Positions 17,956-44,269 of a stretch of DNA of 64,000 nt are shown one piece after another. The notes below the pieces were generated by a model. The model worked only from the letters and a program-made list of their open reading frames with translations. It was not told where the DNA came from and did not search any database. A program made the position numbers and the translations under genes. The first letter of the stretch is position 1. Every line of letters starts with the position of its first letter. Where the stretch lies: the NCBI GenBank assembly GCA_044892525.1, contig CM097885.1, forward strand, positions 248,001 through 312,000, read 5' to 3'. This stretch comes from Schmidtea polychroa. Lineage: Eukaryota.

Positions 17956-18014
17956 ACTACTGATATACATTTAGTAATTTTACACACATTTATATACATC
18001 GCTTTTTGTCGGTT

Positions 18015-20139: not shown

Positions 20140-21528
20140 CTACTCAGTCCTACTCTTCCCGTCTCGCCTCACCGCTATTTTTATGTATATAGTGTCGTTT
20201 CTCGTCATGTCTTCTACTTTCCGCTGTAGGATGAAATTCGGTGCTCCAGTTGCTGGTCCTTCTTCTTCCAAGGGCCTTTGGTAACATACGAGGTTTCCCG
20301 CTGTATGGAAACTCTGTTCATGTATACTTTGATAGTTCATCATTGCGAGGTCTATTTTTGCTTTGAATGGCCATTCTATTAACTCGTCGTATAGCCCTTT
20401 GCACATCAAGAAAAATACTGAGAAATGCGTTCCGTATGCACTTCCATCCCCATTGGGGTATGCTTTCATTTTCATTTTATACCCGTTTTTCCATGAGTAG
20501 AATGCTGGACTTAGTAATGTTGTATCCTTTCCATTTCTCGCTCTCTGCATCTTCTCTTTTACTCCCGTTATTTTCCATATGTATGGCGCCGTTGGTATTA
20601 ATTCGTTGAGGTTTAATTCGCTTACTCTTTGATGTAGTTCTTTCACCATAATGTTGCTAGTTTCCACTAGGTCTGTCTGTATCTTTGTACTTGTTCTCGC
20701 CTCCTCAAATGCTTCCTTTTCTTCCAATAACTCTTTTACCAACGCTTTTAGCGAGACCATTTCTTTCTCTAAGTTTTCGGTTTTCCTTTCGTTTTCTTGT
20801 AATACCGTTGACCATATTTCCGCGTGTGTTGATACGTTTTCTGCTAGATGTTGGGGTAATTCTCCTCGGTGTAATTGTTTCTGACATCCCCATTTTCCTA
20901 GCACACACGTTATCTTTTTCCTTTCACATTCTCTGAGATGTTGAGCGAGTCTTATTACTCCAGATTTATCGCATTTATTGGGACATTCTCCTCTGAACCC
21001 TGCGCACACTTTCTCCTCTTGTATGTTGTGATGTTGACTGATTAATTTTTTCCAGGTGTCGGTTTCTCCGCAATACTCACATTTCTCCAGTCTTTCTTCG
21101 CATCGACTTTGATGTTCTGCTTCTTCATTGACTTTAATCTCTTCTTGGCAACGTTTGCATTGACTGATTTTATATTCACATTGCTCCATATGTTGCCTCA
21201 CTTCCCATATCCCTCCTCGCCAATTGCATGGGGTGTTTTTACATCCTAAATTTGAATTTAACATATCTTTCACGGCTGCTTTATCTTCGTTTGTATCTCC
21301 CAAACTTGTTATCATGGTTTCTTTACATACTGGGCACCATTGTGGTCCCTTCTTTATTATCTCCTCTACACATTCTCTGCACATTCTGCATCCACATCTG
21401 GTTTGGTGAGGTTCTCTTAATAAGCTCTTGCATATTCCACACGTTACATGGTTGTGTATTCGAATTGTGGTGGACTTTCTGACTTGTTCAACAATTTCTT
21501 TGAATTCTTCTCGTTGTCGCTTATCCAT
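20140..21528 (-). CDS. TRAF: TNF receptor-associated factor (TRAF)-like E3 ligase/adaptor, intronless
   Basis: RING (CGIC..LLREPHQTRCGCRMCRECV..CPVC), several TRAF zinc fingers, coiled coil, MATH domain (YIWKI..LLSPAFYS..GYKM..YPNGDG..GTHFSVF..GLYD..WPF..NDTIYIK). Confidence 0.95.
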   Translation of the reverse strand: MDKRQREEFKEIVEQVRKSTTIRIHNHVTCGICKSLLREPHQTRCGCRMCRECVEEIIKKGPQWCPVCKETMITSLGDTNEDKAAVKDMLNSNLGCKNTPCNWRGGIWEVRQHMEQCEYKISQCKRCQEEIKVNEEAEHQSRCEERLEKCEYCGETDTWKKLISQHHNIQEEKVCAGFRGECPNKCDKSGVIRLAQHLRECERKKITCVLGKWGCQKQLHRGELPQHLAENVSTHAEIWSTVLQENERKTENLEKEMVSLKALVKELLEEKEAFEEARTSTKIQTDLVETSNIMVKELHQRVSELNLNELIPTAPYIWKITGVKEKMQRARNGKDTTLLSPAFYSWKNGYKMKMKAYPNGDGSAYGTHFSVFFLMCKGLYDELIEWPFKAKIDLAMMNYQSIHEQSFHTAGNLVCYQRPLEEEGPATGAPNFILQRKVEDMTRNDTIYIKIAVRRDGKSRTE

Positions 21529-21617
21529 TTCTATAATTATATATATACATATATTCGTTACTGGTACAGTTTCGTATTTTTATTTACAGTTATTTACATT
21601 GCTATTTTAGGTTATAT

Positions 21618-22145: not shown

Positions 22146-25100
22146 CTATATACGTGAGCTTGGAGGGCGCTGAGCATTCCAGGCCTCCACCCACTGTTCC
22201 TGCTTGATATTACTTGGTCGTTTTACATGATGTTGAAAATTTCTTATTCTGGCCATTTCTAGTTCTCCGCGATGCCGTCTATCTTTGATTATTTTTATTG
22301 TCCCCCCCGTTATGATTAAAAAGGCCCCTGTTATTATTATGCCGCTGATCCACATCATCTGTTTTACGCTTATAATTTCCGCTTTTTCCTTGTTCATTAT
22401 TGTTGATATTGCCTCTGTGCTTTTTAGATTACCGTCTTTGCCATTTCCTTTTATCATTCCTCGTATTCTTGCTATTTCCTCGTTCATACCTTCCTTTGCC
22501 ATTTTTTGTATTTTCTCCATCTCTTCCTCTGATACATAATTGACCTGATATTTCTCACCGGTTTTCTTGCGTTTTCCTTGCTCATCTTTTTCATCATTGA
22601 TTTTTCTTTTCTTCCCTCTTTTCCCAGGGTATCGTCGACATTCTCTTTCTGGACCGTTTCTCAGGATATAGACCGTATATTCCTTTGGTGGTTGTTGTTG
22701 CGTTACGTATTGTAGACAATTTTCTCCTGGTCCTAGCCTTGAAATACACACTTTGTGCTCTTTTCTTGGTTGAAGCTGTGTTATCACTATTTCACCTCCT
22801 TTACTTAGGTGTACCTCTTTCCATTTGACTTTTGTTATTTTCTTCCCGTTTCGATGTTGGTATGCTTCTTGTATTCCCACTTCCGTTATTGGTTCTGCAT
22901 CTTCATTTTTTAACACTAGTCTCTGATAAGCTCTAGACATACATCTTCCTAATATACACCTTTCTTTTAAATCCCATTCCTCTTTTAGATCCCATTGCTG
23001 CTCTTGTACTTGTTTTTTCTTTTCTTGTTTTAGTTCTTCCTCTTTGTTGTCCTTATTTTCCGTTTCTTTGGCTTCTTTTATCGTTCTCATTCCTCCCTGG
23101 GCTGTTATCATTTCCACCATTGTTAATACGAGTATCATTATCATCATATTTGTCTCCATTTCTTTGTTGGTAAAAAGTAGACATACCCTCTGTTTTCCAC
23201 TATTCGTCTTTTCTTCTTGCTTTATTCGGTTTCTCGGGTTATTTTCCTCTTTTTTCCTACTCGCGTCGTTATTTTCTTGATTATTCTCCTCTGATTTCTC
23301 TTTCTCTTTATTCCCGTTTCGACCTTTTTCGTTATTATCGTCGTCTTTATCGTCTTTATCTCCCCCGCTATCGTTTAAAATGTCGTCCTCGACATTTATA
23401 TCATTCAACAATCTGCGGTATGCCGTTAGCACTCTGTTTCTTGCTAATTTTGCTTCGAATTCGAACTCCTTTCTGCCTGTTGCTACATGTCTCTTTCTTT
23501 TCCATTCTTTCACTAATTCTCTTAATTGTATCCGACGATGTTTTCCGATTCGCTTTTGTTCGTTTAGATTCTGCGTGAATTTGAGATCTTCCCTGTTTAA
23601 TACGATCATTATGATTTTTGGAGTTCCTCCTTTTGTTAGTGTATTTTTAACCATAGCATTTTCTCCGTTTTCGTAAAACTCATTTATATTTATTGCATAT
23701 TTATTGCTTTGCGGTATTTTCCATGTTAACAATAACTTCATGGCTTCTAAGCTCATCCGTATCGTGTTCCATTGGAACTGCGACGTGTTTTTACAGATAT
23801 TTTCTACCTCAGTTCTTGTAGCATTTTTACAAATGAATCTAATCATTTCCAAGTTTGGTTGTATTGTTGCCCAATCCATGGCAGAATTTCCTTCGTTTGA
23901 TATTTCGTCAAGTCTCGAACCTGATTGATGTAGTATATGTAAGGTTTTCGGGTGTATCTTTGTTATTGCTGCATACATCATTGCTGTTTCTCCTTGTTCA
24001 TTTTTTGCATTAGATTCTTCTCCCAAGTCTCTAAGAATTCTTATGATGGTTATTGCTCTGTTTTCTTTTGCTGCTAAAATGGCTTGTTGTAATGGTGTTC
24101 TTGAATCTTTTGTTGGTAAGGTGAATGCTAGTGGTATAAATGCTTTTATTTTTCCTATGTCTAGATTTGTGGTCTGGTCTCTCGCGTAGGTGTGTACTGC
24201 TTTTGTTATTTTTGCTAGTATCGCTTCATCGGATAGATCTTGCATTTCTTCAAAGAATACTTCTTTAGCCTTACGTATTACTATCTCTTGGTCGGAGTTT
24301 ATTATCTTTGGTTTACTTGTTGTTGCTATATCGCTTATTATTTGATCGACTCGTTTCTCAGACTCTCTTACTGTTATTTTCTTGATTTTTATCTTTTTCT
24401 TGTTCGAACTGTTAATGCGTTCCTCTGCCGTTAGAACTTGAATAATACTTAGGTAAGTTTCTCGAATGTTATTCATATTTTCCATCATATATAATACACT
24501 CACGGTTTCCCAAAATTTTACTTGTACTTTATCGGTAAATTGAGATATAGCTTTTTCGAAGTCGGTAATTCGTTTTCTGATTAGTTGTTCGTCTTTGTGA
24601 TTTGAGAACTTTATGCCACGTTGTAGTAGTTGATTTGGAATTTCGAATAGGTGATGTCCTCTCATCGCTTCTCTCATCAAGGTGTTTTCTCCTTTGGTAA
24701 ATGTTTCGTTTATATCTACCATATAATCGTTTTTGATCGGGTTCCTCCATGCAATTAGTAATCCAGCAATTGTTATTAATTTCTCTTTGATTGCAGTTAA
24801 TAGCCCGTCATACATGTTTCCTATCTCCCTATTATCCTCGTATGATAATAGATCTACTAAGATTATGAAGGCTTTCGTACTTTTCCCTTCGATTGCATGA
24901 TGTAGTGCATTTTTCTGGTTGTCATCCTGTGTGGTTATCTTTGACCCAGTTTCAAGTAATGCGATAATAATATCTTTAGCTTTATCCCGATTGGCTGCTA
25001 TCATTAGTGGAGTGTAACCTTGGTTGTTTTCTTGATCCGTCGAAATGTTACAGTCGCGAAATGCTTCGATCGTTTCCAGTATTTGTTCATTATTCCCGAC

Positions 25101-28100
25101 CTTTAAAAGTTTGTGCAGCGGTGTATCTCCATAATGGTCTGTGATCGTAAATAATATAGGCCATTGACTTTTTACTACCCTGAGTAATGGGTGTGTTCTT
25201 TCTCGGTTTGCATAGTTTTCGATCATGGTTAGCAGACCTCCCAATATCTCAAAATCTAATCGGTCTTTTGCCCATCCGGGCATTTTAGCTTTCACTTCCT
25301 TTATGATTTTCTCGGCTTCTGATGGTTGTAACCCCAATCGGTTACCTGTTGGTTCGTTTATCTGCTGTAACATATTTATTCTATATGTTTGTGATCTTGT
25401 TGTTAATGTTCGCCCTTCCGGCTGGCTGGTGGCTGTTTTCGGTATTGGCTTACATCGTGCCACATTTACATATATTGGCCTCGTGAAGGGGTTGTTTACC
25501 AATCGTACTCTCACATTGGTTTCTCCGACGAATAAAATCTCATACGGACCTTTACCGTTTCGTTGTAATTTTTTGGTGGTTCCTGGAATTAATTCTGGTG
25601 TTTCGATCATCACCCAATCACCGGTTTGAAATGTATGTTGTTTAACGTTTTTCTTTCTATCATGCAGATCTTTGTAACTTTCCTGATAAAACTTTATATT
25701 TAATCCCGCAGTTTCCCAGATTTCTTGCATTCTTTCCTTGAACTTGGTTACATAATCGTCTATTTCCATGTATTGTGATATTGGTGGCTGATATTCTAAA
25801 TCCATTGGCATATTGCATTCTCTGCCGTACATCAACTTAAACGGACTCATCTTTGTGGACGCGTGAATCGACATTCTGTAAGCCATTAAACATAATTTTA
25901 TATACTCGTCCCAGTCGCGTTGATGGCGATCGACGTAATTTGATAACATTTGAATCAGTGTTCCATTGAATCTTTCTGTCATACCATTAGTTTGTGGATG
26001 GTACGGTGATGTTCTTAATTTTGCGATCTTGAAGTAGTTGGTGACTTCGCTCATTATTTCACTCATGAAGTTTGTTCCTTGATCAGTTAATATCTGTTTT
26101 GGTGTTCCATATCGACAGCATATCTCCTCTACTAGTATTTTTGCGATTGTTCTTGCTTTCTGATCTGCCATAGCGAATGCTTCGGGGAATTTTGTCAAAT
26201 AATCTGTGATTACCAATATATATATATATATATTCCCTCTATCTGATTCTGGTAGTGGACCGACTACGTCCATTGATATCACTGTCATTGGTTCTGCTGG
26301 TACTGGCATTGGCTTTAATGGTGCCTTCCATTTTGTTCCCGTGTTTTTTCTGGTTGCGCAGGTTATGCAATTTTTCACCCATTCCGTTACATCCTCGGTC
26401 AATGTAGGCCAGAAGTATTTTTGTTTCATTCGTGCCAACGTCTTTTTAGATGACATATGTCCTCCGAGTCTTCCGTCATGGTATTGTGTTAGCAGATCTT
26501 TACGTCTATTCTCGGGAATGCACATCAGTCTTTTCTCGCCATCCATTATCAATAACCAATCTTTCTCTATTATATATCGATGTCGATGTTTATCCATGTG
26601 CTCTTTCAATTTTTGATCTTTCTCATATACCTCTACTTTCCCTGTTTTCACATATTCAATGATTTGCTTCAACTCTGTATCCTCTTGTTGGTCTTTCCGT
26701 AATTGGCAAAAATCTAAATCTTCCGCCACCATCAGACATATTCGTTGCATTTCGTGATCTACTAAATCTGGAAAGATAAATCTTGACATACAATCTGCAT
26801 TGGCATTCGCTCTTCCCGCTTTGAATTTTATGAACGGTGAATATTCTTGTAACTGCATTGCCCATCGCATCAATCTACTTGAAGCTTCTTTGTGTTGGCC
26901 AAGCCATACTAGTGGTTGATGATCTGTTGTGATACATATTTCGTGTCCCCATAACAAATATCGAAAATGTTTAATCGCTTGTATAATTGCTAACGCTTCT
27001 CTCTCGGTTACGGAATAGTTTTTCTCATGCTTTTTAAACGTTCTGCTGTAGTATCCAATCACTCTTTCTTTTCCTTCTTCATCCAGTTGTCCTAATATTG
27101 CTCCGGCTGCATATCCACTTGCATCTGTTGCTAATAAGAACGGTTTCTTGAAATCAGGATGTACCAGTATTGGGGCTTCAATTAATTTATCTCGCAATGT
27201 CTCAAATGCTTTTTGTTGTTCTGCACCCCAAATAAATGAAATATCCTTTTTCACTAATTCCTGTATTGGTTTCGCAATACCTGCATAGTTTTTGATGAAT
27301 TTTCGATAATATCCGCATAATCCGAGAAATTCTTGAACTTGGGTGACAGTTTTTGGTGCTGGACATGTTTTTATTTTTTCTATGTTTCTTGGATCTGGTT
27401 CTTTGCCTTTTGCTGACACTATGTGTCCTAAGAACGTAACTTTTTCTTTTGCCCAATCACACTTTGATGGTTTGAGTTTCAATTTCCATTGTCGTAATCG
27501 AACGAACACGTTTCTGATATCTTCCAAATGTTGTTCGAATGTTGCTGAATATATTAATAAATCATCAATATATACCATGCACTGCTTGATCCCGTGCGTG
27601 ACGAAATTCATACATCTCTGAAATGATGCTGGGGCATTGGTCAGTCCAAATGGCATTTTCCTGAATTGATACAGGTCTCGACCCAACGTGAAGGCCGTTT
27701 TCTCCTTGTCTTCCTCTTTAACTTTGATCTGCCAATATCCGCTTTTTAGATCTAAAGACGTAAAATATGCGGCCCCTTGCAGCATAAGTAACATCTCATT
27801 GATGTCTGGTAACGGGTATGTGTCTCTTTTTGTTACTGCATTTAGTTTCCGATAATCGATACAGAATCTCTGGGTACCGTCTTTTTTCTTCACCATGACT
27901 ACTGGAAATTGCCATGGCGAACAACTTGGTTCGATCACTTGTGCATCTAGCATTTTTTGTACTTCTGCTTCGGCTATCTCTTTTTGCTTCTCTGCTAGTT
28001 TGTATGGACGTAGTGCGATTGGAGTTTCGTCTATTAATGGTATTGCGTGTAATGTAACATCGCATGCTCCCAAATCTAAGTCCGAAATAGCGAATATATC

Positions 28101-29945
28101 TTTATATTCTATCAATAATTGTTGAAGTCTTTCTTTTTCCTTTTCCGTTAGCAATGTGCTATCGATTGTCCATAATTCGTCAGCTTTCGTTGTTTCATTG
28201 GTGATTTTTGGTAATTCGATGTCTATCATGGGTGTCAATCTACCCAATCTTTCATTTTCATATATGATCTTGTCTTCTTCCTCGAAATTTGTGATGTTAA
28301 TTGGTATTTCCCCTTCGTCATTAATTGTTATTATTTCTCTTGCTAATGGTAATTCTCGTCGTTTTTCGAATGATTTGCTTGGCTCAAAAATGGCTTCTCC
28401 TTCCATTCCTGCATCCACTTTTATTTGACATATCATCTGGGATTTTGCTGGTACAATTATTTTCTCCGGACATCTGATTATTGCGTTCATTTTGCATATT
28501 CTACCCATTTTATCTTTTAGGCACATTGTTGTTAGATCTATTACTACTTCTTTGAACAATTCCGGCATTAAATCCGTTCCGATTATACATGGTTCACTCA
28601 GTTTGGGTATCACCGCCAGATACGTTTCAATTTCATTATCTTGATATCGTAACGTAGTCCACCATCTTCCTACTACGTCTACGGTTTCTTTACTGCATGC
28701 AATAATATGGATAGTTGTTTGTTCGATGTCTTTCCAACATTTACTGGGTATTTGGTTTATTGCTATTGCTGATACATTTGCTCCGGTATCTATCATTGCG
28801 CTTGTCTCTTTCCCGTTGATTTGGATCATGACTGTTACTGCCGCGCCTCCTGGTGAACTCATTACTGCTATTGTTCTGACGTCATCCGCTTGGTCTACAC
28901 TTTTCGTTCTTCGGGTCGGCATATAGTTCATACCTGGTTGACTTGGTAACTGTGGATACATATTTTGTGTCATGGTCAAAGCTGTTTGTTGTCCAACGAT
29001 ATCTGGTGGTATATAACTTCCGTTGGCTATCCAGGTATTCGTTTTTTCTTTCTCCCAAAATGGTGCTGTTTCTATTGGCTTTTCATTCGGGTTTCTACTT
29101 GGATATGGATATTTGTCATTCCCATTGTCGTCATCATCACTATCGCTGCTGTTTGATCGATTTCTAAATCTGTCTAAAAATTTTGGTTTGTTCTTTTTCA
29201 GTTGTGTCCTTGTTGCTTCATCATACATTGTTTTCCGAAATCGTCTACCGACTTCCTCGTCAGTCCCTTTTATTTTTGTCAGTATTTTTATTAATCGTTT
29301 TATTCTGTGTATATCTTTAGAATGACCGTGTAACACCATTGTTTTTGCCAAAAATGGTAGAAAACCTACTATCAACTTCCAATTTACTTTCTTTTCTCTC
29401 TTATAGATATCGAAACACGCTAACATTTGAGTCAATATTACTCTGACAATCTGAATAATTAAGATGATTCCCAGTATTCCTGCCATCATTTGACCGAACA
29501 CTAGAAATCTTCCCCACATTGCTTTCATCATGTTTGACGTGGCTTGTTGAAAATGATCGGGTGACAATAATAGTTCGTAATTGGGACCTGATTGGAAATT
29601 CGTTCCCCCAGTTATGGTAACCATATTTGATAGAATGGATTCTCGCCTTGCTGGGAATAGTACGTTTAGTCGTGCCGTTTCTAAATCCTCTGCTGAGTAC
29701 ATACCTGCTTTTGACACATCAATTGGTTTGAAATCTTGCTCCGTTGCGAGTTCTATTAATCCAAACTTTTTAGGCTCTTGTACTTCGGTTTTTACCGGTA
29801 ACATTATCCATTTCCCATCGGGTTTTTCATATAACGGTCCGTATGCATTTGAACAGTTGAAGGTGTTCGGATAAAATCCAATTGGGTTCATAATTCTAGT
29901 GACGGGTTGAACGAATCTGTTTTGCCCTTTGTAACTAATTTCCAA
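22146..29945 (-). CDS. pol: Polyprotein part 2: Env C-terminus/TM - aspartic protease - RT - RNase H - integrase - ankyrin repeats - C-terminal membrane protein
   Basis: IDTGA (28782-28790), YIDD (27561-27572), TDASG..YSVTEREALA..TDH, HHCC + D,D,E + GPY. Ankyrin motifs (GDTPLH, GYTPLMIAA, KNALHHAI, RTPLQQAI, GETAMMYAA, GNSAMDWA) at ~23600-25170. Hydrophobic segments at ~23100-23147 and ~22290-22357. Confidence 0.95.
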   Translation of the reverse strand: MEISYKGQNRFVQPVTRIMNPIGFYPNTFNCSNAYGPLYEKPDGKWIMLPVKTEVQEPKKFGLIELATEQDFKPIDVSKAGMYSAEDLETARLNVLFPARRESILSNMVTITGGTNFQSGPNYELLLSPDHFQQATSNMMKAMWGRFLVFGQMMAGILGIILIIQIVRVILTQMLACFDIYKREKKVNWKLIVGFLPFLAKTMVLHGHSKDIHRIKRLIKILTKIKGTDEEVGRRFRKTMYDEATRTQLKKNKPKFLDRFRNRSNSSDSDDDDNGNDKYPYPSRNPNEKPIETAPFWEKEKTNTWIANGSYIPPDIVGQQTALTMTQNMYPQLPSQPGMNYMPTRRTKSVDQADDVRTIAVMSSPGGAAVTVMIQINGKETSAMIDTGANVSAIAINQIPSKCWKDIEQTTIHIIACSKETVDVVGRWWTTLRYQDNEIETYLAVIPKLSEPCIIGTDLMPELFKEVVIDLTTMCLKDKMGRICKMNAIIRCPEKIIVPAKSQMICQIKVDAGMEGEAIFEPSKSFEKRRELPLAREIITINDEGEIPINITNFEEEDKIIYENERLGRLTPMIDIELPKITNETTKADELWTIDSTLLTEKEKERLQQLLIEYKDIFAISDLDLGACDVTLHAIPLIDETPIALRPYKLAEKQKEIAEAEVQKMLDAQVIEPSCSPWQFPVVMVKKKDGTQRFCIDYRKLNAVTKRDTYPLPDINEMLLMLQGAAYFTSLDLKSGYWQIKVKEEDKEKTAFTLGRDLYQFRKMPFGLTNAPASFQRCMNFVTHGIKQCMVYIDDLLIYSATFEQHLEDIRNVFVRLRQWKLKLKPSKCDWAKEKVTFLGHIVSAKGKEPDPRNIEKIKTCPAPKTVTQVQEFLGLCGYYRKFIKNYAGIAKPIQELVKKDISFIWGAEQQKAFETLRDKLIEAPILVHPDFKKPFLLATDASGYAAGAILGQLDEEGKERVIGYYSRTFKKHEKNYSVTEREALAIIQAIKHFRYLLWGHEICITTDHQPLVWLGQHKEASSRLMRWAMQLQEYSPFIKFKAGRANANADCMSRFIFPDLVDHEMQRICLMVAEDLDFCQLRKDQQEDTELKQIIEYVKTGKVEVYEKDQKLKEHMDKHRHRYIIEKDWLLIMDGEKRLMCIPENRRKDLLTQYHDGRLGGHMSSKKTLARMKQKYFWPTLTEDVTEWVKNCITCATRKNTGTKWKAPLKPMPVPAEPMTVISMDVVGPLPESDRGNIYIYILVITDYLTKFPEAFAMADQKARTIAKILVEEICCRYGTPKQILTDQGTNFMSEIMSEVTNYFKIAKLRTSPYHPQTNGMTERFNGTLIQMLSNYVDRHQRDWDEYIKLCLMAYRMSIHASTKMSPFKLMYGRECNMPMDLEYQPPISQYMEIDDYVTKFKERMQEIWETAGLNIKFYQESYKDLHDRKKNVKQHTFQTGDWVMIETPELIPGTTKKLQRNGKGPYEILFVGETNVRVRLVNNPFTRPIYVNVARCKPIPKTATSQPEGRTLTTRSQTYRINMLQQINEPTGNRLGLQPSEAEKIIKEVKAKMPGWAKDRLDFEILGGLLTMIENYANRERTHPLLRVVKSQWPILFTITDHYGDTPLHKLLKVGNNEQILETIEAFRDCNISTDQENNQGYTPLMIAANRDKAKDIIIALLETGSKITTQDDNQKNALHHAIEGKSTKAFIILVDLLSYEDNREIGNMYDGLLTAIKEKLITIAGLLIAWRNPIKNDYMVDINETFTKGENTLMREAMRGHHLFEIPNQLLQRGIKFSNHKDEQLIRKRITDFEKAISQFTDKVQVKFWETVSVLYMMENMNNIRETYLSIIQVLTAEERINSSNKKKIKIKKITVRESEKRVDQIISDIATTSKPKIINSDQEIVIRKAKEVFFEEMQDLSDEAILAKITKAVHTYARDQTTNLDIGKIKAFIPLAFTLPTKDSRTPLQQAILAAKENRAITIIRILRDLGEESNAKNEQGETAMMYAAITKIHPKTLHILHQSGSRLDEISNEGNSAMDWATIQPNLEMIRFICKNATRTEVENICKNTSQFQWNTIRMSLEAMKLLLTWKIPQSNKYAININEFYENGENAMVKNTLTKGGTPKIIMIVLNREDLKFTQNLNEQKRIGKHRRIQLRELVKEWKRKRHVATGRKEFEFEAKLARNRVLTAYRRLLNDINVEDDILNDSGGDKDDKDDDNNEKGRNGNKEKEKSEENNQENNDASRKKEENNPRNRIKQEEKTNSGKQRVCLLFTNKEMETNMMIMILVLTMVEMITAQGGMRTIKEAKETENKDNKEEELKQEKKKQVQEQQWDLKEEWDLKERCILGRCMSRAYQRLVLKNEDAEPITEVGIQEAYQHRNGKKITKVKWKEVHLSKGGEIVITQLQPRKEHKVCISRLGPGENCLQYVTQQQPPKEYTVYILRNGPERECRRYPGKRGKKRKINDEKDEQGKRKKTGEKYQVNYVSEEEMEKIQKMAKEGMNEEIARIRGMIKGNGKDGNLKSTEAISTIMNKEKAEIISVKQMMWISGIIITGAFLIITGGTIKIIKDRRHRGELEMARIRNFQHHVKRPSNIKQEQWVEAWNAQRPPSSRI

Positions 29946-32900
29946 CTCGTTTGCGCATTTCCCTGGTGGTATTGTGGGTTTTCTTGGCAGTCGCGCAAAC
30001 GTCTTGGTACATACATTACCTCTCCCACCATTCTACCAAAATGTCCATCCGGTAACGGGAGTGATGGCATTGTGTTATCTGGGTGTGTTATTGCGATGGC
30101 TAATTTTGTTTTTAGTATCTCTTTATTCAATGAACAGTCATTTTGTATAAGATCGTAGTATACTTTTTGCATTGTCGTTTGTCCTCGATGAAATAAAAAG
30201 TCCATTTTGTTGTTGGCATAAAGGTACAACTTCACGTCCTCCGTTGATACTTTTCCTACTGCTCGGTCTATTACTTGCCTTGACATGTAGATACCTGCGT
30301 AGTTCGTCCGATATACTATGCTGTCACATTCGGTGGTCTCTTTTTCTCTGATGAATCTCATACCGATATCTGGATCATCTGTAATTAATGCCGTTGGTGT
30401 TTTTTGTGTTGTGAGTCTCTTTTCTTTGGGGGATGGTGGAACTGGTTTCCCATTTCGCATCCTTACGTTTCCATTCTCTTCATCGTCATCCTCGTTTTCG
30501 TAAATTTCTCCTTTTACTTCATTGAATAGAGCACTTTTTAACAATTGGAGTCGGCATTTTTGGGTGTTAGCTTCATATATTATAGTCGAAATTCCCGTTC
30601 TACACACGTTTTCCGTAGCTCTGCATGCTGGGTTGGTTTTCATTTGATAGTTGTTTGCGTCGAATTGTGCTTCGTATTCCTTCAACTCCACTGTGTAGGA
30701 CTCAATTACTACTACTCCCGAGATCACTTCTCCTCTGATCGTATATGTGCCTCCGTTACATGATCCATCAGTTGATTTTACTCGTCCGGCTACATAGATA
30801 CTTTCCGTCTTGATCATTCCGCTTTGTCCGTGTATTGTTACTCCATCCCTGATTCTCATCGCTCCGGTTCTAAAAAGCTCTTTACAGTCTTCCCGTTGTA
30901 TAGGTACTATTTCTTTATCTAATCCAGGTAATATGAGAGTTGAATACGAATATTGTCCACAGTAATATGCCAACACTTTCTTCGATACTACGCATTCTCT
31001 AGCTTGCGTCCTAATGAAATCTGATTCTTGGTATACGTGATAGGAGACTTTCTTTTTTACTATATCTAATTTATTCGGAGATGCCTGTCTACATTCCTCT
31101 ATATCTCTCAGGGAGTATCTTTCTCCTATTATTGAATTGTCACAGTCGTAAATTGTAAATCCAGCTGCTCCACTGGTGCAGAGCATCCATATCATCATGG
31201 TCATCATTAGTGAATTAATCGACGCTTTTCTGCTGGCTGGGTCTTTCAATGGCAATTCCCATTCCAGTTCGTTTAGCAATTTCTTCAACCGAATTTGCAT
31301 CGATCTCTCTTGCTCGTTTTTTCGTGGCGCTTGTATGAGTCTTTTCCACCCACCGGCACGGATAATATGTGGTTCGATTGTATTTTCAATGATTGTAACG
31401 GTCATTTCTACATGATTTGCGAATTGTTTGTTAGGTATTTTCCTTGCTGCTAATCCCATCAAATTGTACATTAGATACGTTAATACTACTAAATGATGTT
31501 CGTCGTCGTTTGCGTTTAAAGTTAATTGTTCAATTACCCTTCTTGTCTCTTCCCAATCGGTTTTAGTGGTTTTTGTCTTCTCTTTGATTAATTTCGGAAT
31601 TATTCCGGATATTGTATTCCATAGCTGTCTGGCATCTACGCTTGCTACTTTTCGTTGCCATAACCGTCGCAATTGTGGGTTCGTTATTATTAGCATATCT
31701 TTTACTAGCTCTCGTATCCATTTTTCGCCTCTTTCGATTGTTGGCTGGGCCTCTTTCAGATCCCACACTATTTTATCCAGTTTCTTCAATCTGACTTGTC
31801 CTTGTTCTTGTTTCAGTTGTTCTCTGGTTTTAAATTCTGGTTTTTCTCCTTGCTTCTTGGGTCTTCCTTTTGCCCGTTTCTCCATCATTGTTCCAGCTTC
31901 TCTTGTCGTTTCATAATTCGGGTTTCTCTCGTTATCTGTTCTTGGCAATGAGCTATCGTTGTTTCTCAGCCACTCATTCCATTCGTCTATTATTTTGTCC
32001 GTTTGACCTTCTGGTGTTGCTTTCGTCGGTCCTTTTGGTCGTTGGAATTGTTCGTCGGTTTCGGTTTCTGTTGTATTATCGATAATTTCCTCTATGTTCA
32101 GCTTATTTGGTTGTTGATAGCTAGTTGACGGTTGGCTTGTTGTCCATATTTCGGCTCCTGTCGGCCATCTTACCAGAATTGGTGATCTTTCTCCAGCTCC
32201 TTCATCGCTGTCTTCTAATATGATTTCCTCGATTTCCTCGGTTTCATTCGATTTACTCGCCACTTTGTTAGGGCTTGGTGTACTCAAGCTACCTTTCGTA
32301 GTTTTGCTGGATTTGCTCTTCCTTTTAATCGGTTTTCCCAATGTTTCTGCCATTGTCAATACATTGATCTCCCCCAATCTCATGGGTGTTATTCCGACAT
32401 CTGCATTATCATCTAACGATTTTCCGAATAGTTGTAGGTGAAATGGAGTTTCGTATGCTAACTTCTTTTTTAACTCTCTGATCTTTGTTGTTGGATGTAC
32501 TTCTATATCCTCAATGCTTTTGTCGGGATACTTGACTCGGATACGATACCTTTCCTGGGTATCTTGTGCCCATTCTTGGTTTCTCCATTTCCTAATAATT
32601 TGTTCTAGCTGTTCTGGGTACCATTCGTTATATTGTCGGTATTCCTCAATCGCTTTCGCCATTTCTCTTAGATTGTGGATATTCTCTGATGTCTTTAGGA
32701 TGATGTTAGCCAATGCTACTACTTGTCGTTTTTGATTTTTTGTTCCCGTTGCTAAGATGTCACCTAATTGTTTATATCTTTCCTTCTCTTCTCGTTCTCG
32801 AGCTTCCATCGCTTCTTCGCTGTCCATATCGGCATATTCGCGTTCCTTCTTTCTCATCGCATGAATATGTCTGGTTTCCGTTTCACTTTCGGACGTGACG

Positions 32901-35900
32901 TCCGTTTCGCTTTCCTCGTCCGATACCGGTTCTTTCTCTTCCTCTTCGTATTTTGGAGGTTCGTCTTCCTCTTCTTCTGATTTACTTTCGGTCTCGCCAA
33001 TGTCTGTTTCTACGAAAATTCCTTTCCTGACTTCCCACTCTTTATTTTCCGCATTCCACATCCTTTCCCAGGGAGTTCGTCTGCAAGATCTAGTACTTAG
33101 TTTCTTTATTTTTCCTTGTAGTTCCTTTTCCTTTAACCACTGTTGATGAATTTCAATTATCTCTACTGATTTTTGGTATAGCGTTTTCATCCTGTCCCGT
33201 ATCTCTTTCTGGTAGGTTACATCTCTTGTTCGGAATTCGTCCATGGGCAATATTCTAATTATTTGATGATTATCCCACATTCCCATTTCGCTTAACGATG
33301 TGTCGTCTTCAGCCCGTAATATTATTTTATCGTACATCATGACTACATCATCTATCATCCCGTCGCTACTCTCGCTTCGTACTTTTTCCGTTATCTCTTG
33401 GTTTATCTTGGTTACTAAGTCATCCACCGTACTCTGATTACTCATCTTTATTCGTCGTTTCTCCTCGTTTGGTAACCATATGGTTATTTCTAATTTCTGC
33501 GGTTGCGTTTCTTTTAATCTTCCGTATTTGTGGATCAAATTTATGGTTCTCCAATCGCTCATCCTGAGCAATTCTGTATCTCGTAATCGGCTCATTAGTT
33601 CATGCATATCTGGAGTTCGTCTTGCTATGAGTAAATCCCAGTTATCTTCGACTTGTTCTTGAATTTGTTTGATTAGTTTATCTAGATTCCGCCTTAAAGT
33701 GCATTGTTTTATTTGTTCCAATTTCAGCTTGATATTGAAATCGTATTCAGCCTTGGCGTCTTTAGCCCATTCATGAACATTAGTTGGTTGCTTCTCTTTA
33801 TGCAACTTCAATATTTGAGTTTCTCCTGGCCAGATCAATGCATCTATTAGGTGCATGTCTGGCTTAATTTGTTCTCCTTGGTATTGATATAAATACTCTT
33901 TCTTTCTCGAGCTGCCCAAATGTTCTCTTATCCAATCGAAAAGATCGTCTGTAACTGTATTTTTTATCCATATTCTCTCGAGTCCTTTACTCGTTCCGAT
34001 TTTATTACGTATTTTTTCCATATACTTCTTTATTATCGCTTTCTCCTCGCTTGGTATTAAATCTTTTTCGTTTCTTTCCAGTTTCATTATCTTTTGTATG
34101 AAGCGTCTGTATGGTATGATGTCAATGAAATCCTGGTTTCTTACCACCACTGGAAGTATTTCTTTTACTTGTTTTATCGCCTCTTCTTTTTCCTTTCTCA
34201 GTTTCATCTCGATATTCTCATCTTCACTTTCGCTTGCCACATCGCTTTCACTTTTCTCCTCATCTTCTCCGATCTTTTTCTTTAGTTGTTCGATATTTTC
34301 ATTTAACTGCAATATTTCTCCACCCAGGCTACTCACATTATCCTCATCGTCATCTGTTGACAATACCTTCTTTGTCGTCCTCATCATATTAATTCGTAAA
34401 TTCCTCATCCTTGGTACTTTCTTTAGCTTCTGGTTCTCGAATATCGTTAGCTCCTCTGAGTCTAATTCTTGTATCATATTATGATTTAGATGATTAATCT
34501 GCTTCTCATTTTCGTTATTTTCCGCTTCTACTCCGGTTTTGATTTTCTCGTGTTCCTTTTCGATTTTATCTTTTATCTTTTTCCAGAATATTTTCTGAAT
34601 TCTCTGATTCCCTTTTAATGGTGTTGTTGGGTTTTCCTTTTTCGCTTCTGTAATCGTTTCTTTCGGTGTCTCTGGTTCGATCAATGGGACTACTCTTGGA
34701 TTTTTCCCGTAATTGTAACAATATTGCTCTTTTATCTCCTTTACCATCCTCATCATATTTATTCGTAATGGTTGTTCTTGTCGCTGCTGAATTCGCTCTC
34801 TTTTTATTCTCTCTTCCTCAGCTTGTAGTCTCTGCCATTCTTGTGCATGTTGTTGTACTTCATAATTGTTAAGATTCTCGGTGCTCCTCATCAGGCGTAT
34901 ATTCTGAGTTTGTTGTGGTACTGGTTCTTGTCTTGGCCTCATCATTTGTTGCATCATTTGTTTCATTTGAGAAATTTCTTGCATCACATTCATTTGTTTT
35001 CCCTCACTGGGGTTACTTTGTCGTTGCGGATTTGGTGCATAATTATTGTTTCGTTGTGGTGGTCGTTGTTGTTGGCCCCTTTCTCGGCAATCTCTTGAGA
35101 TGTGACCTGGCTGACCGCAGTTAAAGCATCCTCTCAACTGGCATATATTTTCCGTGTGTCCTCGTCGTCCGCATCTATTACAATTTGCGTTTCGGTAACA
35201 ATCTCTGTACCAATGTCCTGGTTTACCGCATGTTCGGCATTGTTTGTTATCGTTCGTATTTCGTCGATTATTAAAATTATTTCCATTGTTCGAGTTGTTG
35301 CGTTCGCTGTTATTCCCGTTTGATCGTCCTTGCGGTGGTTTGAAAATTTGATGCGCACCTGGTATAAACTGATTCATCTTCGGTTCATGATTATTGTTAT
35401 CTCCATTTTCTGTTTTCGCCGTAGCTGCTGCGATTCTTCCCTCCTCTTGCATGACATTCATTTGTGCCGGGAGGTGTAGTTCGCATCTTGTGGCCCAATC
35501 TATGGCCTCCTCTAGTGTTTTACACATCTGACATCCCACCGAGGCTCTTACCTCTTCCCGGCGTAGTCCTTCTATGAAATAACCAATTAGGTTCTCTTCC
35601 GGCAAGTTTCCGTTCATGGCCTTCGTTGCCAATCTTCGCAATTCGCTTGCGTATAACGTTATTGATTCATTGGCTCTTTGTTTTCTACTCGCTAATTCTC
35701 CTAGGGCTTGATTTATTGGTTTGCTGGCCCCGAATGTTTTTCTCAAAAATGTTTTGATGTTTTCCCAATTGTCTAATTTCGTATTTCTTTCTTTTGCTTC
35801 TAGATACACTTCGAGTGCGCTATCGCACAAAAACAGAGGCATTCGTTTACTAATTGCTTCCGCTGTCCATCCGCACACATCGATATAGACTTCAAAATTT

Positions 35901-35992
35901 GTTATGAACGTTGCCAACTTGTTCGCATTCCCGTTAAACGGTTCGCCTCTAAATTTTTCTTTATACTCGTCGGTTTTTACCACATTCATCAT
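29888..35992 (-). CDS. gag: Polyprotein part 1: Gag (capsid, 3 CCHC knuckles) - ubiquitin-like domains - Bcl-2-like domain - envelope glycoprotein ectodomain
   Basis: Retrotransposon capsid motifs (PFNG..F..F..GW..L..SA..W..F..RKQ..ESI..Y..FIEGL) and three CX2CX4HX4C at 35087-35239. The frame stays open without an ATG up to ~36415. Env-like part starts after the hydrophobic MMTMMIWMLCTSGAAG at 31207. Confidence 0.9.
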   Translation of the reverse strand: MMNVVKTDEYKEKFRGEPFNGNANKLATFITNFEVYIDVCGWTAEAISKRMPLFLCDSALEVYLEAKERNTKLDNWENIKTFLRKTFGASKPINQALGELASRKQRANESITLYASELRRLATKAMNGNLPEENLIGYFIEGLRREEVRASVGCQMCKTLEEAIDWATRCELHLPAQMNVMQEEGRIAAATAKTENGDNNNHEPKMNQFIPGAHQIFKPPQGRSNGNNSERNNSNNGNNFNNRRNTNDNKQCRTCGKPGHWYRDCYRNANCNRCGRRGHTENICQLRGCFNCGQPGHISRDCRERGQQQRPPQRNNNYAPNPQRQSNPSEGKQMNVMQEISQMKQMMQQMMRPRQEPVPQQTQNIRLMRSTENLNNYEVQQHAQEWQRLQAEEERIKRERIQQRQEQPLRINMMRMVKEIKEQYCYNYGKNPRVVPLIEPETPKETITEAKKENPTTPLKGNQRIQKIFWKKIKDKIEKEHEKIKTGVEAENNENEKQINHLNHNMIQELDSEELTIFENQKLKKVPRMRNLRINMMRTTKKVLSTDDDEDNVSSLGGEILQLNENIEQLKKKIGEDEEKSESDVASESEDENIEMKLRKEKEEAIKQVKEILPVVVRNQDFIDIIPYRRFIQKIMKLERNEKDLIPSEEKAIIKKYMEKIRNKIGTSKGLERIWIKNTVTDDLFDWIREHLGSSRKKEYLYQYQGEQIKPDMHLIDALIWPGETQILKLHKEKQPTNVHEWAKDAKAEYDFNIKLKLEQIKQCTLRRNLDKLIKQIQEQVEDNWDLLIARRTPDMHELMSRLRDTELLRMSDWRTINLIHKYGRLKETQPQKLEITIWLPNEEKRRIKMSNQSTVDDLVTKINQEITEKVRSESSDGMIDDVVMMYDKIILRAEDDTSLSEMGMWDNHQIIRILPMDEFRTRDVTYQKEIRDRMKTLYQKSVEIIEIHQQWLKEKELQGKIKKLSTRSCRRTPWERMWNAENKEWEVRKGIFVETDIGETESKSEEEEDEPPKYEEEEKEPVSDEESETDVTSESETETRHIHAMRKKEREYADMDSEEAMEAREREEKERYKQLGDILATGTKNQKRQVVALANIILKTSENIHNLREMAKAIEEYRQYNEWYPEQLEQIIRKWRNQEWAQDTQERYRIRVKYPDKSIEDIEVHPTTKIRELKKKLAYETPFHLQLFGKSLDDNADVGITPMRLGEINVLTMAETLGKPIKRKSKSSKTTKGSLSTPSPNKVASKSNETEEIEEIILEDSDEGAGERSPILVRWPTGAEIWTTSQPSTSYQQPNKLNIEEIIDNTTETETDEQFQRPKGPTKATPEGQTDKIIDEWNEWLRNNDSSLPRTDNERNPNYETTREAGTMMEKRAKGRPKKQGEKPEFKTREQLKQEQGQVRLKKLDKIVWDLKEAQPTIERGEKWIRELVKDMLIITNPQLRRLWQRKVASVDARQLWNTISGIIPKLIKEKTKTTKTDWEETRRVIEQLTLNANDDEHHLVVLTYLMYNLMGLAARKIPNKQFANHVEMTVTIIENTIEPHIIRAGGWKRLIQAPRKNEQERSMQIRLKKLLNELEWELPLKDPASRKASINSLMMTMMIWMLCTSGAAGFTIYDCDNSIIGERYSLRDIEECRQASPNKLDIVKKKVSYHVYQESDFIRTQARECVVSKKVLAYYCGQYSYSTLILPGLDKEIVPIQREDCKELFRTGAMRIRDGVTIHGQSGMIKTESIYVAGRVKSTDGSCNGGTYTIRGEVISGVVVIESYTVELKEYEAQFDANNYQMKTNPACRATENVCRTGISTIIYEANTQKCRLQLLKSALFNEVKGEIYENEDDDEENGNVRMRNGKPVPPSPKEKRLTTQKTPTALITDDPDIGMRFIREKETTECDSIVYRTNYAGIYMSRQVIDRAVGKVSTEDVKLYLYANNKMDFLFHRGQTTMQKVYYDLIQNDCSLNKEILKTKLAIAITHPDNTMPSLPLPDGHFGRMVGEVMYVPRRLRDCQENPQYHQGNAQTSWKLVTKGKTDSFNPSLEL

Positions 35993-38198: not shown

Positions 38199-38678
38199 TT
38201 AACTGAAGTAAATCGTGTGCTTCTCCTTTATTGCACATACACATAAAGAACAATGCGTTAAACTGACGGCGCATTCGTCGCAATGGCTAAGGTGTCCACA
38301 AGGTAGCATTAGAATTCTGGCAGGTCGCGTCTTACAAATGTTACAAGTTCTCAAGGCCGCTGCTTTTTCTATTATCGAGGTTCGTATTCTCTGAGATAGA
38401 GTTTTTACTTGTTCGCGTATTTTCACATATTCGAGGTTCAGAGCGGGGTCGTCGAGTCGTTGCTGCATCCATTGGTAATGGACAGACAAGTCGGTGTCGG
38501 TATTTGTTGACCCCAATCTGTCGGTTAGAAAGTTTTGTTTGGATATCAGCGGTGCGTTGTGGCGTTGTTGCTCTAGGGTTTCTATTTGTTGCAGTTTTTC
38601 TCTTAACGTCTTTATGGAATCGTTTTCTATGTCGACGAACCGGCTTAGTCGTTGTAGATGTTTCCTAGCTTCTGACAT
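38199..38678 (-). CDS. Coiled-coil + C-terminal IAP-type RING finger protein, upstream of gag
   Basis: CNIC..ARILMLPCGHLSHCDECAVSLTHCSLC..IKEKHTIYFS* matches the C-terminal RING layout and aromatic tail of IAP-like ligases; no BIR domain; acceptor TTTTTTAG 2 nt before the ATG. Confidence 0.85.
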   Translation of the reverse strand: MSEARKHLQRLSRFVDIENDSIKTLREKLQQIETLEQQRHNAPLISKQNFLTDRLGSTNTDTDLSVHYQWMQQRLDDPALNLEYVKIREQVKTLSQRIRTSIIEKAAALRTCNICKTRPARILMLPCGHLSHCDECAVSLTHCSLCVCAIKEKHTIYFS

Positions 38679-39087
38679 ATCTAAAAAAGTATGTTGTCAT
38701 TACTCGGTCTCACTTATAAAAATAAAAATAATATTATCGTGTTATAATCAATGTTCGTTTGGCTTTGTTCGCTATTGTTTCTAGTTTATGTATTTTATTC
38801 AATCTCTAATAATTCTTTTTTAATTTAATTCATTTAAAATTAAACAAAATTAGTCAATTCCCATTTTCTCTTCTCTTCATATTCAATCACATTCATTCAA
38901 ACTTATTTAGGTTCGTTTTTGTTCATAGCATGTTCTATTTTACGCAAAGACAGTTCGCATCATCATCTTAATACACTATAATATCAATTCATTTCAGTCC
39001 CGATTCCCTTTTTTATTATAATTAATTAAATTGTTAGTCTAACACATCGTAATACAGTAATAGGCAATCAAACAATTCGAAATCACA

Positions 39088-39105: not shown

Positions 39106-39112
39106 AAAATCA

Positions 39113-42100
39113 TGTTGGCGTATGTGGGGAAAGAGAAAATATGCCCACCTGATCATCATACATCCCAAGTACTCTCTTCCGCTCCGATACTTCCCATACA
39201 TACTCCAAAATGATCAAATACATATTCCCACGTATGAGCCCGTGGTGGTGTTCCACGTTGGTGCTGCTCACACGGGTTGGAAAAGGTTAGCAGGTGAGCC
39301 CCTGCCTTAGGACTACTCCTAACCCTTTCTCGGTTCGGGTTCCATGGTGCCATAGAAGGTCTTACCCGTTTCTTCGCTCCTAATTCAGTCCAACCCTGGT
39401 CCAAAGGGACGACATTTGCGCTCGTACTATGTCTCCAGGAGCACCTTTTACTCAAATCAACCACAGCAAATCACACATACCATGAAAAAAAAAATCAAAG
39501 ACTTCAAACAGTTGTATTAAAGAGAAACATAAAAATACATTCACCATTAATTAAATAAGAACAAAACATCAAAGGTCATGTACAGGATAACGTCAACTTC
39601 TCCGAGTTCCTTCATACCGCACAAAGATTGAGACAAATGAGAAAAAGGAATTCATTACGAAAACACTTCTCCTTCTGCGATCATTTCGTCAATGTCGACG
39701 GGCAACCGGCGATCTTCGAGGAATTTGATGACGTCGGCCGGAACTACCCGAAATACTTCTTTCGTAGGGATAGAATGGGTGATTGTAATTTCCTTGATCG
39801 TCGATTTGGCTGCAGATAACGATGCCTCGAGCGCAGAAGAGTTTTCTCAGCAGTTGTAGGAGTAGTCATCTAAAGAATGAGAAGTCCTTTATTTACATCA
39901 TTAAAATCCTTTCTACTATTTGTTTTCTTTTTATCGTGAGCTTTATCCTGCCACATGTGCATACAATCAGGATTGTCCCCCACATCCATACCTTTGACAT
40001 CACTTAACTCATCCAAACCGTAAACCTTCAAATCAACTCATCATATCGTTCGTAAGGAAGAAAAAAAAAATGAGAACCATCACACGTTATTTCTCTACCC
40101 ATATTGATATTGTACCTAGGTTCCTGGGTCGACAGTTATCATCTAATCGCAATCAGTTACTCCTTACCACTAATATATTTTTTCACTTTTATTTATTATG
40201 ACCCATTGAAGGTGTGTCTACTCCCTTGCTATTATGGCTTATTGAGTTATGCCTGCTTTAATTTAGAAGAAGTAGTTCCATGCTGTTGATGCATTTTTGC
40301 GCTGTGTTAGGTTAAAACGAATGTGTTAAAAATTATTGTAAGTATTAATTTCCCCCATAAATTATAATTTAATTATTTAAATTTTCGCATTTTATGTTGT
40401 CATAACGACGCATATTAGTATGTAGTTGTGTACTGGTTTCAGACTCTACCTGATGTGCGCTAATGTGTATTATTTAGTTTTACTCAATTATCGCTGTCCT
40501 CTCTTAGCAAATTCTAGACATTGTGTCGGTTAGTGTACTTGATCTCGTCGCTTATTTATGCATGCCTACGGACACATGCTACTATGACGCAATGATGATG
40601 TCGACTCACTCACGTCCCATGTATTAGTGGATTTATCTGTGTGTGGGTTTGGGTCTGCTTATCTCAGTTATAACATTATTAGCAGATGGGCTAGACGAAC
40701 GGAAGATAAGGAGTCAGACTTATAGAAATAACGATTGTTATGATTTCAAGATGGCCTAAATCTGTTATCGGGTAGCAAATGGATTTAATTTCTATCTCTC
40801 TCGTGAATGTTGACTATTCTCAAAAACCTAATCGTTTCATCGACTTGGCGCAAATCGTTCCACAATCGAACCGCTGGAATATTTTATCTACGCTACTTGC
40901 CTCTCTGCAATAGTCGTTTCTCGATCAGATGGAAAATTTATTGATAATTTGTTCGGAATGGTCGATGAAAATTTCCTTTAGGACTGTAGTAAGTGCTTAT
41001 GATTAATTAGAACTTTGCTGTTTACTTTCCTGTCAGGACGAATCCTTATCGATGACAGTAGCTAATCGAAGGTTGATAACTAAGTCTCCTACTCGTCCAA
41101 TAACATATCACCGCGACGGGTTGAATCGCTAACGTTCTCTTAATTTATCAATTCTTGGAAATATAGAATGCTCCAGATTTTTTATCATTCATCAAGAAAA
41201 CGAAAATGGACGTTAGAATTATCAGTGAGGTTCGAGAATTTCATTACCCTCAAGGATAGTCGGTGTTCATATTCTGACGAAAAGAAGTCACCTAGCTCTA
41301 AATTGAATATGGCCGAACTCAAACTCGGATTAAATATCGAGAAATGTCGTCAATCTCCTAGAATTTTCAGTCAGCACGTTGTCGGCATCGAAACAGTATC
41401 GCTCAGAAGTTTCCTCAATCGAAAGTTTGCGACGGCTAATTCTCCAGATAGCACTCGATGAAAGGATCATTGACTCGATTCGTTTTCTCTCACAGGGTTT
41501 CCTCACCCCTCACAACCCACCCAAGGACAGTACGCATTTCTGCCCACTGCCCTTGGACCGTCGTGAAGGACAACTCGACCCGACTTATCTCAAATCCTTC
41601 TCCAATAAATGTGCAATTAATAAATTCATATATGATCAAACAAATATGGGAATAATGAAATTAAAAGAAAAATCAAATAAATAAATGTTTACCTGGCGGC
41701 CACGCCAGCCGGATTCCGGGTATGATGACTCTTGCTAACGTAGGTTTTTACATTCATTTAGCAATCATTGTAATACTAATATCCATGTAGATACTTGGCT
41801 GGTTCGGTCAGTGCAATTTCTGAGTATTCATATTCATAAGCTCTCTCTGAAAATGCATACGTAATTTAGCCGCATCATACCCGAGCTCCAGAGGACGTCG
41901 TCGCCAGCATCATAGAGAGAAAGCAACATCTTTTGGTTTTAAATATAAATTTTATTGAAAAATAAAACGTCTTTTGATATTAAATTCATAATAAACATTA
42001 AAAATATCATACTAAAATTCAAAACATAATTTACCAAAATTCTCCGAAGGTGTTGAGATTGAAATCAAAGTCTTGTAAATTTTTCCTTAACGTTTTATTC

Positions 42101-44067: not shown

Positions 44068-44269
<202 letters not shown>

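Follow-up and report, generated by a model that had tools for sequence, protein, structure and literature searches.

The giant long terminal repeat (LTR) retroelement analyzed here lies on the minus strand of a 64,000-nucleotide stretch of the Schmidtea polychroa genome (GCA_044892525.1, contig CM097885.1, positions 248,001 to 312,000 of the forward strand), and this whole stretch, to whose numbering all coordinates refer, is called the window below. A short motif with the working consensus [R/Q]-[I/M/V]-[N/C/H/A]-x-[M/L] recurs along the polyprotein of this element; it is enriched, constrained at the protein level, located at the edges of homology blocks and positionally conserved at two borders within pol. 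We propose, with a probability of roughly 0.6, that a core set of its instances (QMNVMQE twice, LRINMMR twice, RHIHAMR, RTIAVMS, QRICLMV, YRINMLQ and probably QRVCLLF) represents cleavage sites of the aspartic protease, of the D-T-G-A type, encoded by the element itself.

The element spans positions 12793-42807 (30,015 bp), with LTR ends placed by a blastn self-comparison of the window. Its LTRs, 4.2 and 3.7 kb in length, are 99.6-99.8% identical over two alignment blocks, which indicates that the element is young. The pol domains follow the order protease (PR), reverse transcriptase (RT), RNase H (RH) and integrase (IN) according to Pfam, and the whole fits a young Ty3/gypsy-type LTR retroelement of the Burro/GYPSM1 kind, about 30 kb long. 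Its polyprotein is found in two frames, P0001 (36415..29888) and P0002 (30032..22146), and residue numbers refer to these:

30011..35992, minus strand: first frame from its first methionine (M142), with gag, three CCHC knuckles, a coiled/acidic spacer, two ubiquitin-like regions, an AT-hook-like G-R-P motif, a Bcl-2-like region and the N-terminal two thirds of the envelope protein (env)
22146..30011, minus strand: second frame, with the rest of env and its membrane anchor, PR, RT, RNase H, IN, an ankyrin protein and a C-terminal membrane glycoprotein; stop codon at 22146-22148
29990..30032, minus strand: frameshift inside env, near 30011, which divides the polyprotein of the window copy into two frames

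Pfam matches in the first frame are Retrotrans_gag (3.6e-10), zf-CCHC (1.8e-8) and Monjiviricetes_fusion (4.1e-39), and the class III viral fusion glycoprotein profile (PF24664) scores 4.1e-39 there and 5.9e-26 in the second frame. At relaxed Pfam thresholds, sub-threshold matches to ubiquitin (E 0.074), PI3K_rbd (E 0.015) and Bcl-2 (E 0.13) appear between the knuckles and env. The second frame matches RVP (9e-8), RVT_1 (8e-37), RT_RNaseH (2.7e-39), Integrase_H2C2 (1.6e-20), rve (3.1e-12) and Ank_2 (7.5e-17). The RVP match places the retropepsin at P0002 residues 401-492, with the catalytic sequence IDTGAN (a D-T/S-G-A motif) and an alignment to HIV-1 PR around the active site.

The two halves of env are in one frame in all eight sister copies and in distant relatives, and positions 241-628 of the Pfam env profile are in one frame in other families of the same genome, so that the window copy carries a frameshift here. 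The whole fetched 8.4 kb is open in three of the eight sister copies, the other five being broken elsewhere. As the first methionine of the first frame is residue 142, the intact polyprotein would comprise about 4,615 amino acids and would run in the order gag, nucleocapsid (NC), spacer, two ubiquitin-like parts, Bcl-2-like part, class III env, PR, RT-RNase H, IN, ankyrin protein and second membrane glycoprotein.

Twelve strings in this polyprotein had been listed in an earlier note on the same DNA as a recurrent motif at domain borders, and all twelve are present where it placed them, on the minus strand and in the two frames. The loose form of the pattern, [IMV][NCHA].[MLVI], has 39 matches in 4,803 amino acids against 25.2 expected, a number that 4 of 1000 global shuffles and 5 of 1000 local ones attain, and the same pattern reversed gives 20 matches against 25.2 expected. 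The tight form, [RQ][IMV][NCH].[ML], which was defined post hoc when the data had already been inspected, has nine matches against 0.9 expected (0/1000 shuffles) and a single one when reversed (0.9 expected); by inspection, none of the nine falls within a Pfam domain stretch. The enrichment of the motif exceeds chance. QMNVMQE and LRINMMR, moreover, are the sole repeated 7-mers of the 4,615-residue polyprotein (0.015 expected per shuffle). The flanks of each pair are unrelated and the codons differ only synonymously, and the heptad pairs are therefore not the product of a segmental duplication. The core instances are the following:

35444..35464, minus strand: QMNVMQE copy 1, candidate capsid (CA)/NC cleavage site, between Retrotrans_gag (193-286) and the first knuckle (392); exact 7-mer repeat, near-invariant in 26 copies
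34976..34996, minus strand: QMNVMQE copy 2, candidate site where NC ends C-terminally; the gag/NC homology block has its median end 17 residues away; 7-mer repeat
34748..34768, minus strand: LRINMMR copy 1, candidate spacer site; LRINMM unchanged at the codon level in 29/29 copies; 7-mer repeat
34379..34399, minus strand: LRINMMR copy 2, candidate spacer site; variants synonymous only; 7-mer repeat
32852..32872, minus strand: RHIHAMR, candidate site after an acidic tract and between the two ubiquitin-like regions
28857..28877, minus strand: RTIAVMS, candidate N-terminus of PR; I388-M391 lie 27-24 residues before the catalytic Asp
26727..26747, minus strand: QRICLMV, candidate RNase H/IN cleavage site; column conservation in relatives
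25365..25385, minus strand: YRINMLQ, candidate site at the C-terminal end of IN, before the ankyrin protein; column conservation in relatives
23172..23192, minus strand: QRVCLLF, candidate site separating the ankyrin protein from the last membrane glycoprotein, whose signal-peptide-like segment follows after 9 residues

Borders were defined as the median ends of BLASTP homology blocks shared with 20 relatives. The nearest loose match lies 17, 17, 0, 2, 8 and 21 residues from gag start, NC end, env start, env end, PR start and IN end, respectively. This closeness is equalled by 25 of 20,000 random placements of 38 matches, and by 17 of 20,000 without the gag start, for block-edge categories that the analyst picked once the layout was known. 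Enrichment at boundaries, which had been suggested as a check on the motif, is borne out within that limit. When positions are compared with the Pfam stretches, one motif match is found at each of CA/NC, NC end, PR N-terminus, RH/IN and IN end.

The N-terminus of PR allows the register to be considered more closely. Retroviral proteases begin about 24 residues before the catalytic Asp, and the alignment of the window PR to HIV-1 PR supports this register. Residue 11 of HIV-1 PR aligns to V401 in a weak HMMER match (E 0.005), and ungapped extrapolation puts PR residue 1 on M391, the last residue of the motif. When the N-terminal regions are right-aligned on the catalytic Asp, most of 17 relatives show by eye a hydrophobic-x-x-hydrophobic pattern in or near the same register, with 5 of the 17 in exactly the register of the window.

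Sister copies provide a measure of constraint in the first part of the polyprotein, where 26 distinct copies average 94.1% protein identity over P0001 residues 1-1638. The five core 6-mers (QMNVMQ twice, LRINMM twice and RHIHAM) differ in 5 cells, where random sets of five 6-mers differ in 39.8 on average, and 636 of 20,000 such sets match or beat them, a modest level of significance (p ~0.03). At the codon level, among 29 copies, synonymous variants of these 6-mers are carried by 1, 3, 6, 8, 10 and 10 copies, whereas all five non-synonymous variants are singletons. Given that the shared variants are synonymous and the non-synonymous ones occur only as singletons, the constraint acts on the peptide and not on the RNA. 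Both LRINMMR copies and RHIHAMR are the best-conserved words of the spacer, and their variants shared among copies are synonymous only; the spacer matches KQINHL and ENIHNL, which the earlier note had not listed, vary freely in the family (22 and 8 differing cells).

Distant relatives were found with a PR-to-IN query as long single open reading frame (ORF) polyproteins from metagenome assemblies (with labels such as P0004 and P0023). They are 2,294-4,057 amino acids long and 37-47% identical to the window, with the order gag, knuckles, spacer, env, PR, RT, RH, IN and C-terminal membrane glycoprotein. Column conservation was scored as hydrophobic-x-x-hydrophobic in a MAFFT alignment of 18 relatives and the window, and compared over 185 linker-like positions, defined by flanks less than 15% identical. 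The RH/IN columns (ICLM) keep the pattern in 16 of the 18 relatives and rank 1 of 185, and the IN-end columns (INML) keep it in 15 of the 18 and rank 2. The second motif position is diverse in the relatives (N, A, C, S, L, D, E and G), and the spacer sites lie in regions without alignable relatives.

Three of the twelve listed strings are outside the core set:

35975..35992, minus strand: MMNVVK, gag start codon region; its first residue is the first methionine (M142), and M143 is replaced by T in 11 of 26 sister copies
31202..31225, minus strand: ASINSLMM, n-region of the env signal peptide; next come MTMMIWMLCTSGAAG and the conserved beginning of env (x-x-Y-D-C); invariant in 8/8 copies
28476..28508, minus strand: GRICKMNAII, overlapping pair of motif matches at the PR C-terminus; weak candidate

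Relatives are inconsistent at ASINSLMM, which is doubtful as a protease site. Extending a weak ASPRV1 alignment (E 0.46) to the chain terminus would place the end of the PR fold near GRICKMNAII. As regards QRVCLLF, a change of L to P is found in two of eight sister copies.

Several observations weigh against reading the motif as a cleavage code, in addition to the post hoc choice of the tight pattern and of the border categories and the modest significance of the constraint. MMNVVK is ruled out as a cleavage site since it is the start codon, the pattern of KMNAII is kept in 0/18 relatives by MAFFT alignment columns, and ASINSLMM and QRVCLLF directly precede hydrophobic signal-peptide-like segments, on the predicted cytosolic side. 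The loose pattern has 27 matches that the earlier note did not list, of which at least 10 fall within stretches assigned to Pfam domains (zinc knuckle, env, PR, RT, IN and ankyrin), and is therefore not border-specific. The strict-column test at the PR N-terminus finds the pattern in only 3 of 18 relatives, owing to an alignment gap, and the conserved RH/IN columns could be a structural element of integrase instead of a cut site. Across 14 relatives the loose pattern shows no overall enrichment (258 matches against 262.7 expected), no repeated motif-bearing hexamers occur in 13 relatives, and the RH/IN string of an element resembles its own IN-end string no more closely than those of other elements (2050/5000 permutations). 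When three border windows per element were searched without bias for shared 6-mers, one of 18 elements reached significance; in the window element the result was not significant (34/300 shuffles), and the search, which had no power, picked acidic stretches there. Conservation across copies, which had also been put forward as a check, is seen for the five core 6-mers, whereas the second half of the polyprotein, with 2.7% divergence among eight copies, is too uniform to inform. The original description of a motif recurring at domain borders is confirmed in part.

The shape of the motif can be compared with known protease sites. Retroelement proteases cut at short hydrophobic sites, and those of the HIV-1 type are short, degenerate and located at domain borders, with Asn common two residues before the cut and hydrophobic residues at the cut. 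The window motif differs from them in that no Pro follows the cut and Met is strongly preferred. The mapped sites of the Ty1 protease are VPTIN/NVHTS, IHLIA/AVKAV and TARAH/NVSTS (the slash marks the cut); in the available part of that source, P2 and P2' are mainly Val or Ile (Ala at P2 in one site), and P1 and P1' are small polar or hydrophilic residues, with Asn, His or Ala at P1 (PMC6952103). Two of these three sites, I-N-N-V and I-A-A-V, literally match the loose pattern. In the window motif, Met or Leu usually fills the fourth position, and an Arg or Gln is often found just ahead of it. Given that Ty1 belongs to Ty1/copia, with the order PR-IN-RT, and the window element to Ty3/gypsy, with PR-RT-RH-IN, the likeness is one of site shape and not of family.

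Cleavage at the motif is thus probable from the sequence statistics, the position of the core sites, their partial conservation and the analogy with Ty1; that the motif is cut, by which protease and at which bond, we infer from the same evidence. The protease cleavage code suggested by the earlier note can be retained for the core sites, but three of its twelve strings probably have other explanations, one being the start codon and two lying by signal peptides.

Chance combined with selective reading would explain the pattern if, out of about 25 loose matches expected in 4,800 amino acids, those near borders had been picked. The unlisted matches inside folded domains speak for this, as do the start codon among the listed instances and the one not conserved in relatives. 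Set against it are the excess of 39 matches over 25.2, with 20 for the reversed control, the two 7-mer repeats where 0.015 were expected, the block-edge test (25/20,000) and the ranks of 1 and 2 among 185 linker-like positions. We regard chance as a very improbable explanation overall, one that the data largely rule out for the core set but that holds for MMNVVK and may hold for KMNAII and ASINSLMM. It is also conceivable, and in our judgment unlikely, that the motif is real and constrained but read by something else, such as a docking host factor, a sorting or degradation signal, or a host protease. Enrichment and protein-level constraint do not identify the partner that recognizes the motif, overall enrichment is absent from relatives whose protease is homologous, and no co-variation between site and protease was detected. 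Instances are found, however, precisely at established cleavage borders of retroelement polyproteins (CA/NC, NC end, PR N-terminus, RH/IN and IN end), and their shape matches the mapped Ty1 sites. We know of no host motif of this form, although no systematic check was made.

A narrower version of the cleavage hypothesis would have only these five canonical borders cut, with the spacer, ubiquitin-like, Bcl-2-like and ankyrin parts staying fused, so that no cassette for cargo release would exist and the spacer heptads would serve another role. Clade-wide conservation can be demonstrated only at RH/IN and IN end, and the spacer sites are located where relatives do not align, among words such as KQINHL and ENIHNL that vary freely. 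Yet LRINMMR and RHIHAMR stand out as the best-conserved words of that same spacer, with only synonymous variants shared, and the core of LRINMMR reappears in YRINMLQ at the end of integrase; on balance we think it improbable that cutting stops at the canonical borders. Our preferred explanation thus remains that the core instances, including those of the spacer, are sites of the element's protease. The earlier note went on to suggest that captured host domains had been fitted with cleavage sites, and this is borne out only in part. The ubiquitin-like, AT-hook-like and Bcl-2-like parts and env are old features common to the clade and hence not recent captures, and the relatives have neither the same words nor the enrichment.

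If the core instances are cut, the scissile bond would lie either after the second motif residue, by analogy with Ty1 (I-N/N-V), or after the third, by the HIV-1 register, in which M391 would be residue 1 of PR. About 12 pieces are predicted. These are CA and NC, the spacer in three pieces, one product that joins the second ubiquitin-like to the Bcl-2-like part, env, PR, RT-RNase H, IN, the ankyrin protein and the C-terminal glycoprotein. Predicted masses are about 20 kDa for CA, 18 kDa for NC, 8-9, 14-15 and 58-60 kDa for products from the spacer, and 83 kDa for a free ankyrin protein. The suggestion that the polyprotein yields ten or more mature proteins is plausible by this count.

Four main hydrophobic segments, ordered signal-anchor-signal-anchor, can be recognized in the polyprotein (P0001 ~1735-1755; P0002 182-200, 2296-2314 and 2556-2582), and the same four are found in the relatives P0004 and P0009. 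The first signal segment is below threshold in the window, where it is Met-rich and was identified from the translation, and in P0006. This layout would put env and the last glycoprotein in the lumen of the endoplasmic reticulum and leave gag, PR, RT, IN and the rest cytosolic, and on its account the N-termini of the two membrane glycoproteins would be made more simply by host signal peptidase. ASINSLMM and QRVCLLF, on the cytosolic side of the signal peptides, may or may not be cut. The Bcl-2-like region (P0001 ~1626-1755; window ~31150-31540; sub-threshold E 0.13), which contains a GGW motif, runs straight into the env signal peptide. That signal peptide could double as a tail anchor, which the Bcl-2-like part would then retain. 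We tentatively suggest, at less than even odds, a membrane-threaded polyprotein as in flaviviruses, from which host signal peptidase and a Ty1-like retropepsin (hydrophobic-Asn-x-Met) would together release about 12 products, with two ubiquitin-like proteins, a tail-anchored Bcl-2-like protein and the ankyrin cargo in the cytosol. Under such threading, the exact heptad pairs would equalise cutting rates at paired borders. No minus-strand GT..AG joint was found in four contig runs of unclear kind, which give no evidence either way on a spliced env message or on expression.

Further features of the element lie outside the polyprotein:

12793..17040, minus strand: 3' LTR, from direct repeats in the blastn self-comparison
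39110..42807, minus strand: 5' LTR, from direct repeats in the blastn self-comparison
38199..38696, minus strand: accessory ORF upstream of gag with a C-terminal RING finger (Pfam zf-C3HC4_3, 1.8e-8)
20140..21579, minus strand: accessory TRAF-like ORF (RING and MATH) downstream of the polyprotein (Pfam TRAF-mep_MATH, 8e-25; zf-C3HC4, 9.9e-5)

An extra segment of about 551 bp (13518-14068) is present in the 3' LTR and absent from the 5' LTR, and a minus-strand ORF of 254 amino acids without a Pfam match (13338-14102) spans it. Three further ORFs of the element (18884-19927, 18015-18776 and 17296-17970) have no Pfam match, the first two resembling coiled coils by eye. A tandem array of 9-12-nt repeats is located at 43995-44324, about 1.2 kb beyond the 5' LTR. 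The assembly itself comprises 781 Mb, with four very large contigs, and contains at least 369 candidate copies of the family, of which the 40 scored, the window copy among them, are all 90-100% identical; the env profile gives 2,580 candidate matches.

Variation in the arrangement of domains is observable among the relatives. The ankyrin block follows IN in the window and in P0023 and is located between env and PR in P0004, while extra retropepsin-like domains (D-T/S-G-S) occur after integrase in P0006, P0007, P0009, P0012, P0013, P0016, P0017 and P0023, and in some cases also between env and the main protease. The AT-hook-like G-R-P motif of the window lies in a basic stretch (P0001 ~1478-1492) between the second ubiquitin-like and the Bcl-2-like regions, and by eye it recurs at the same place in P0004 and P0009. 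The same genome also harbors other families of such elements (L031-L034), which are 21-36% identical to the window in gag and env. By eye, two elements of other families, which are 26-36% identical to the window in gag and env and of which little sequence was covered, have the words G-V-N-V-E and A-M-N-V-Q after gag and Y-S-M-M before the protease. In the L033 element a protease-like domain is fused directly to the C-terminus of integrase, as would be expected of a derivative with an internal deletion.

Giant gypsy-like LTR retrotransposons of planarians, Burro and GYPSM1 (Jurka, 2007; Grohme et al., 2018), have been reviewed (PMC6431247). As far as the available part of that review describes them, they share with the window element a length above 30 kb, LTRs, one enormous polyprotein and thousands of copies, and also gag, CCHC knuckles, ubiquitin-like and Bcl-2-like parts, an in-frame env between gag and pol, PR-RT-RH-IN, ankyrin, and MATH/TRAF with RING (PMC6431247). 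Differences from Burro in the same text are that MATH/TRAF is here encoded by a separate downstream ORF and that the polyprotein has about 4,615 amino acids against 4,873 for Burro-1 (PMC6431247). The window element may be another Burro family, an assignment based on shared features. Errantiviruses of the GAG-ENV-POL type with a class III (gB-type) env are known from Platyhelminthes, Nematoda and Bryozoa, and share with the window element a class III env (PF24664) between gag and pol (PMC13524379). The available part of that work covers ORF arrangement and env structure and does not mention processing sites or extra cargo domains. A full-text literature search found no site map or cleavage motif for Burro-type elements, on which the available parts of PMC6431247 and PMC13524379 are likewise silent. 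The element, its size, its cargo domains and its in-frame env were thus already known, and what is new here is the prediction of cleavage sites for a known element.

The processing of a retroelement protein of about 4,600 amino acids, with cargo related to apoptosis and ubiquitin, into functional products is not addressed in the literature that our search covered. The site map gives product sizes and termini that can be tested, allows planarian proteomics to be searched for the predicted N-termini, and predicts which of the cargo domains would function on their own. The resemblance to Ty1 sites further suggests that, among retroelement proteases, a hydrophobic-Asn-x-hydrophobic specificity has an older origin and a wider distribution than an HIV-centred view implies.

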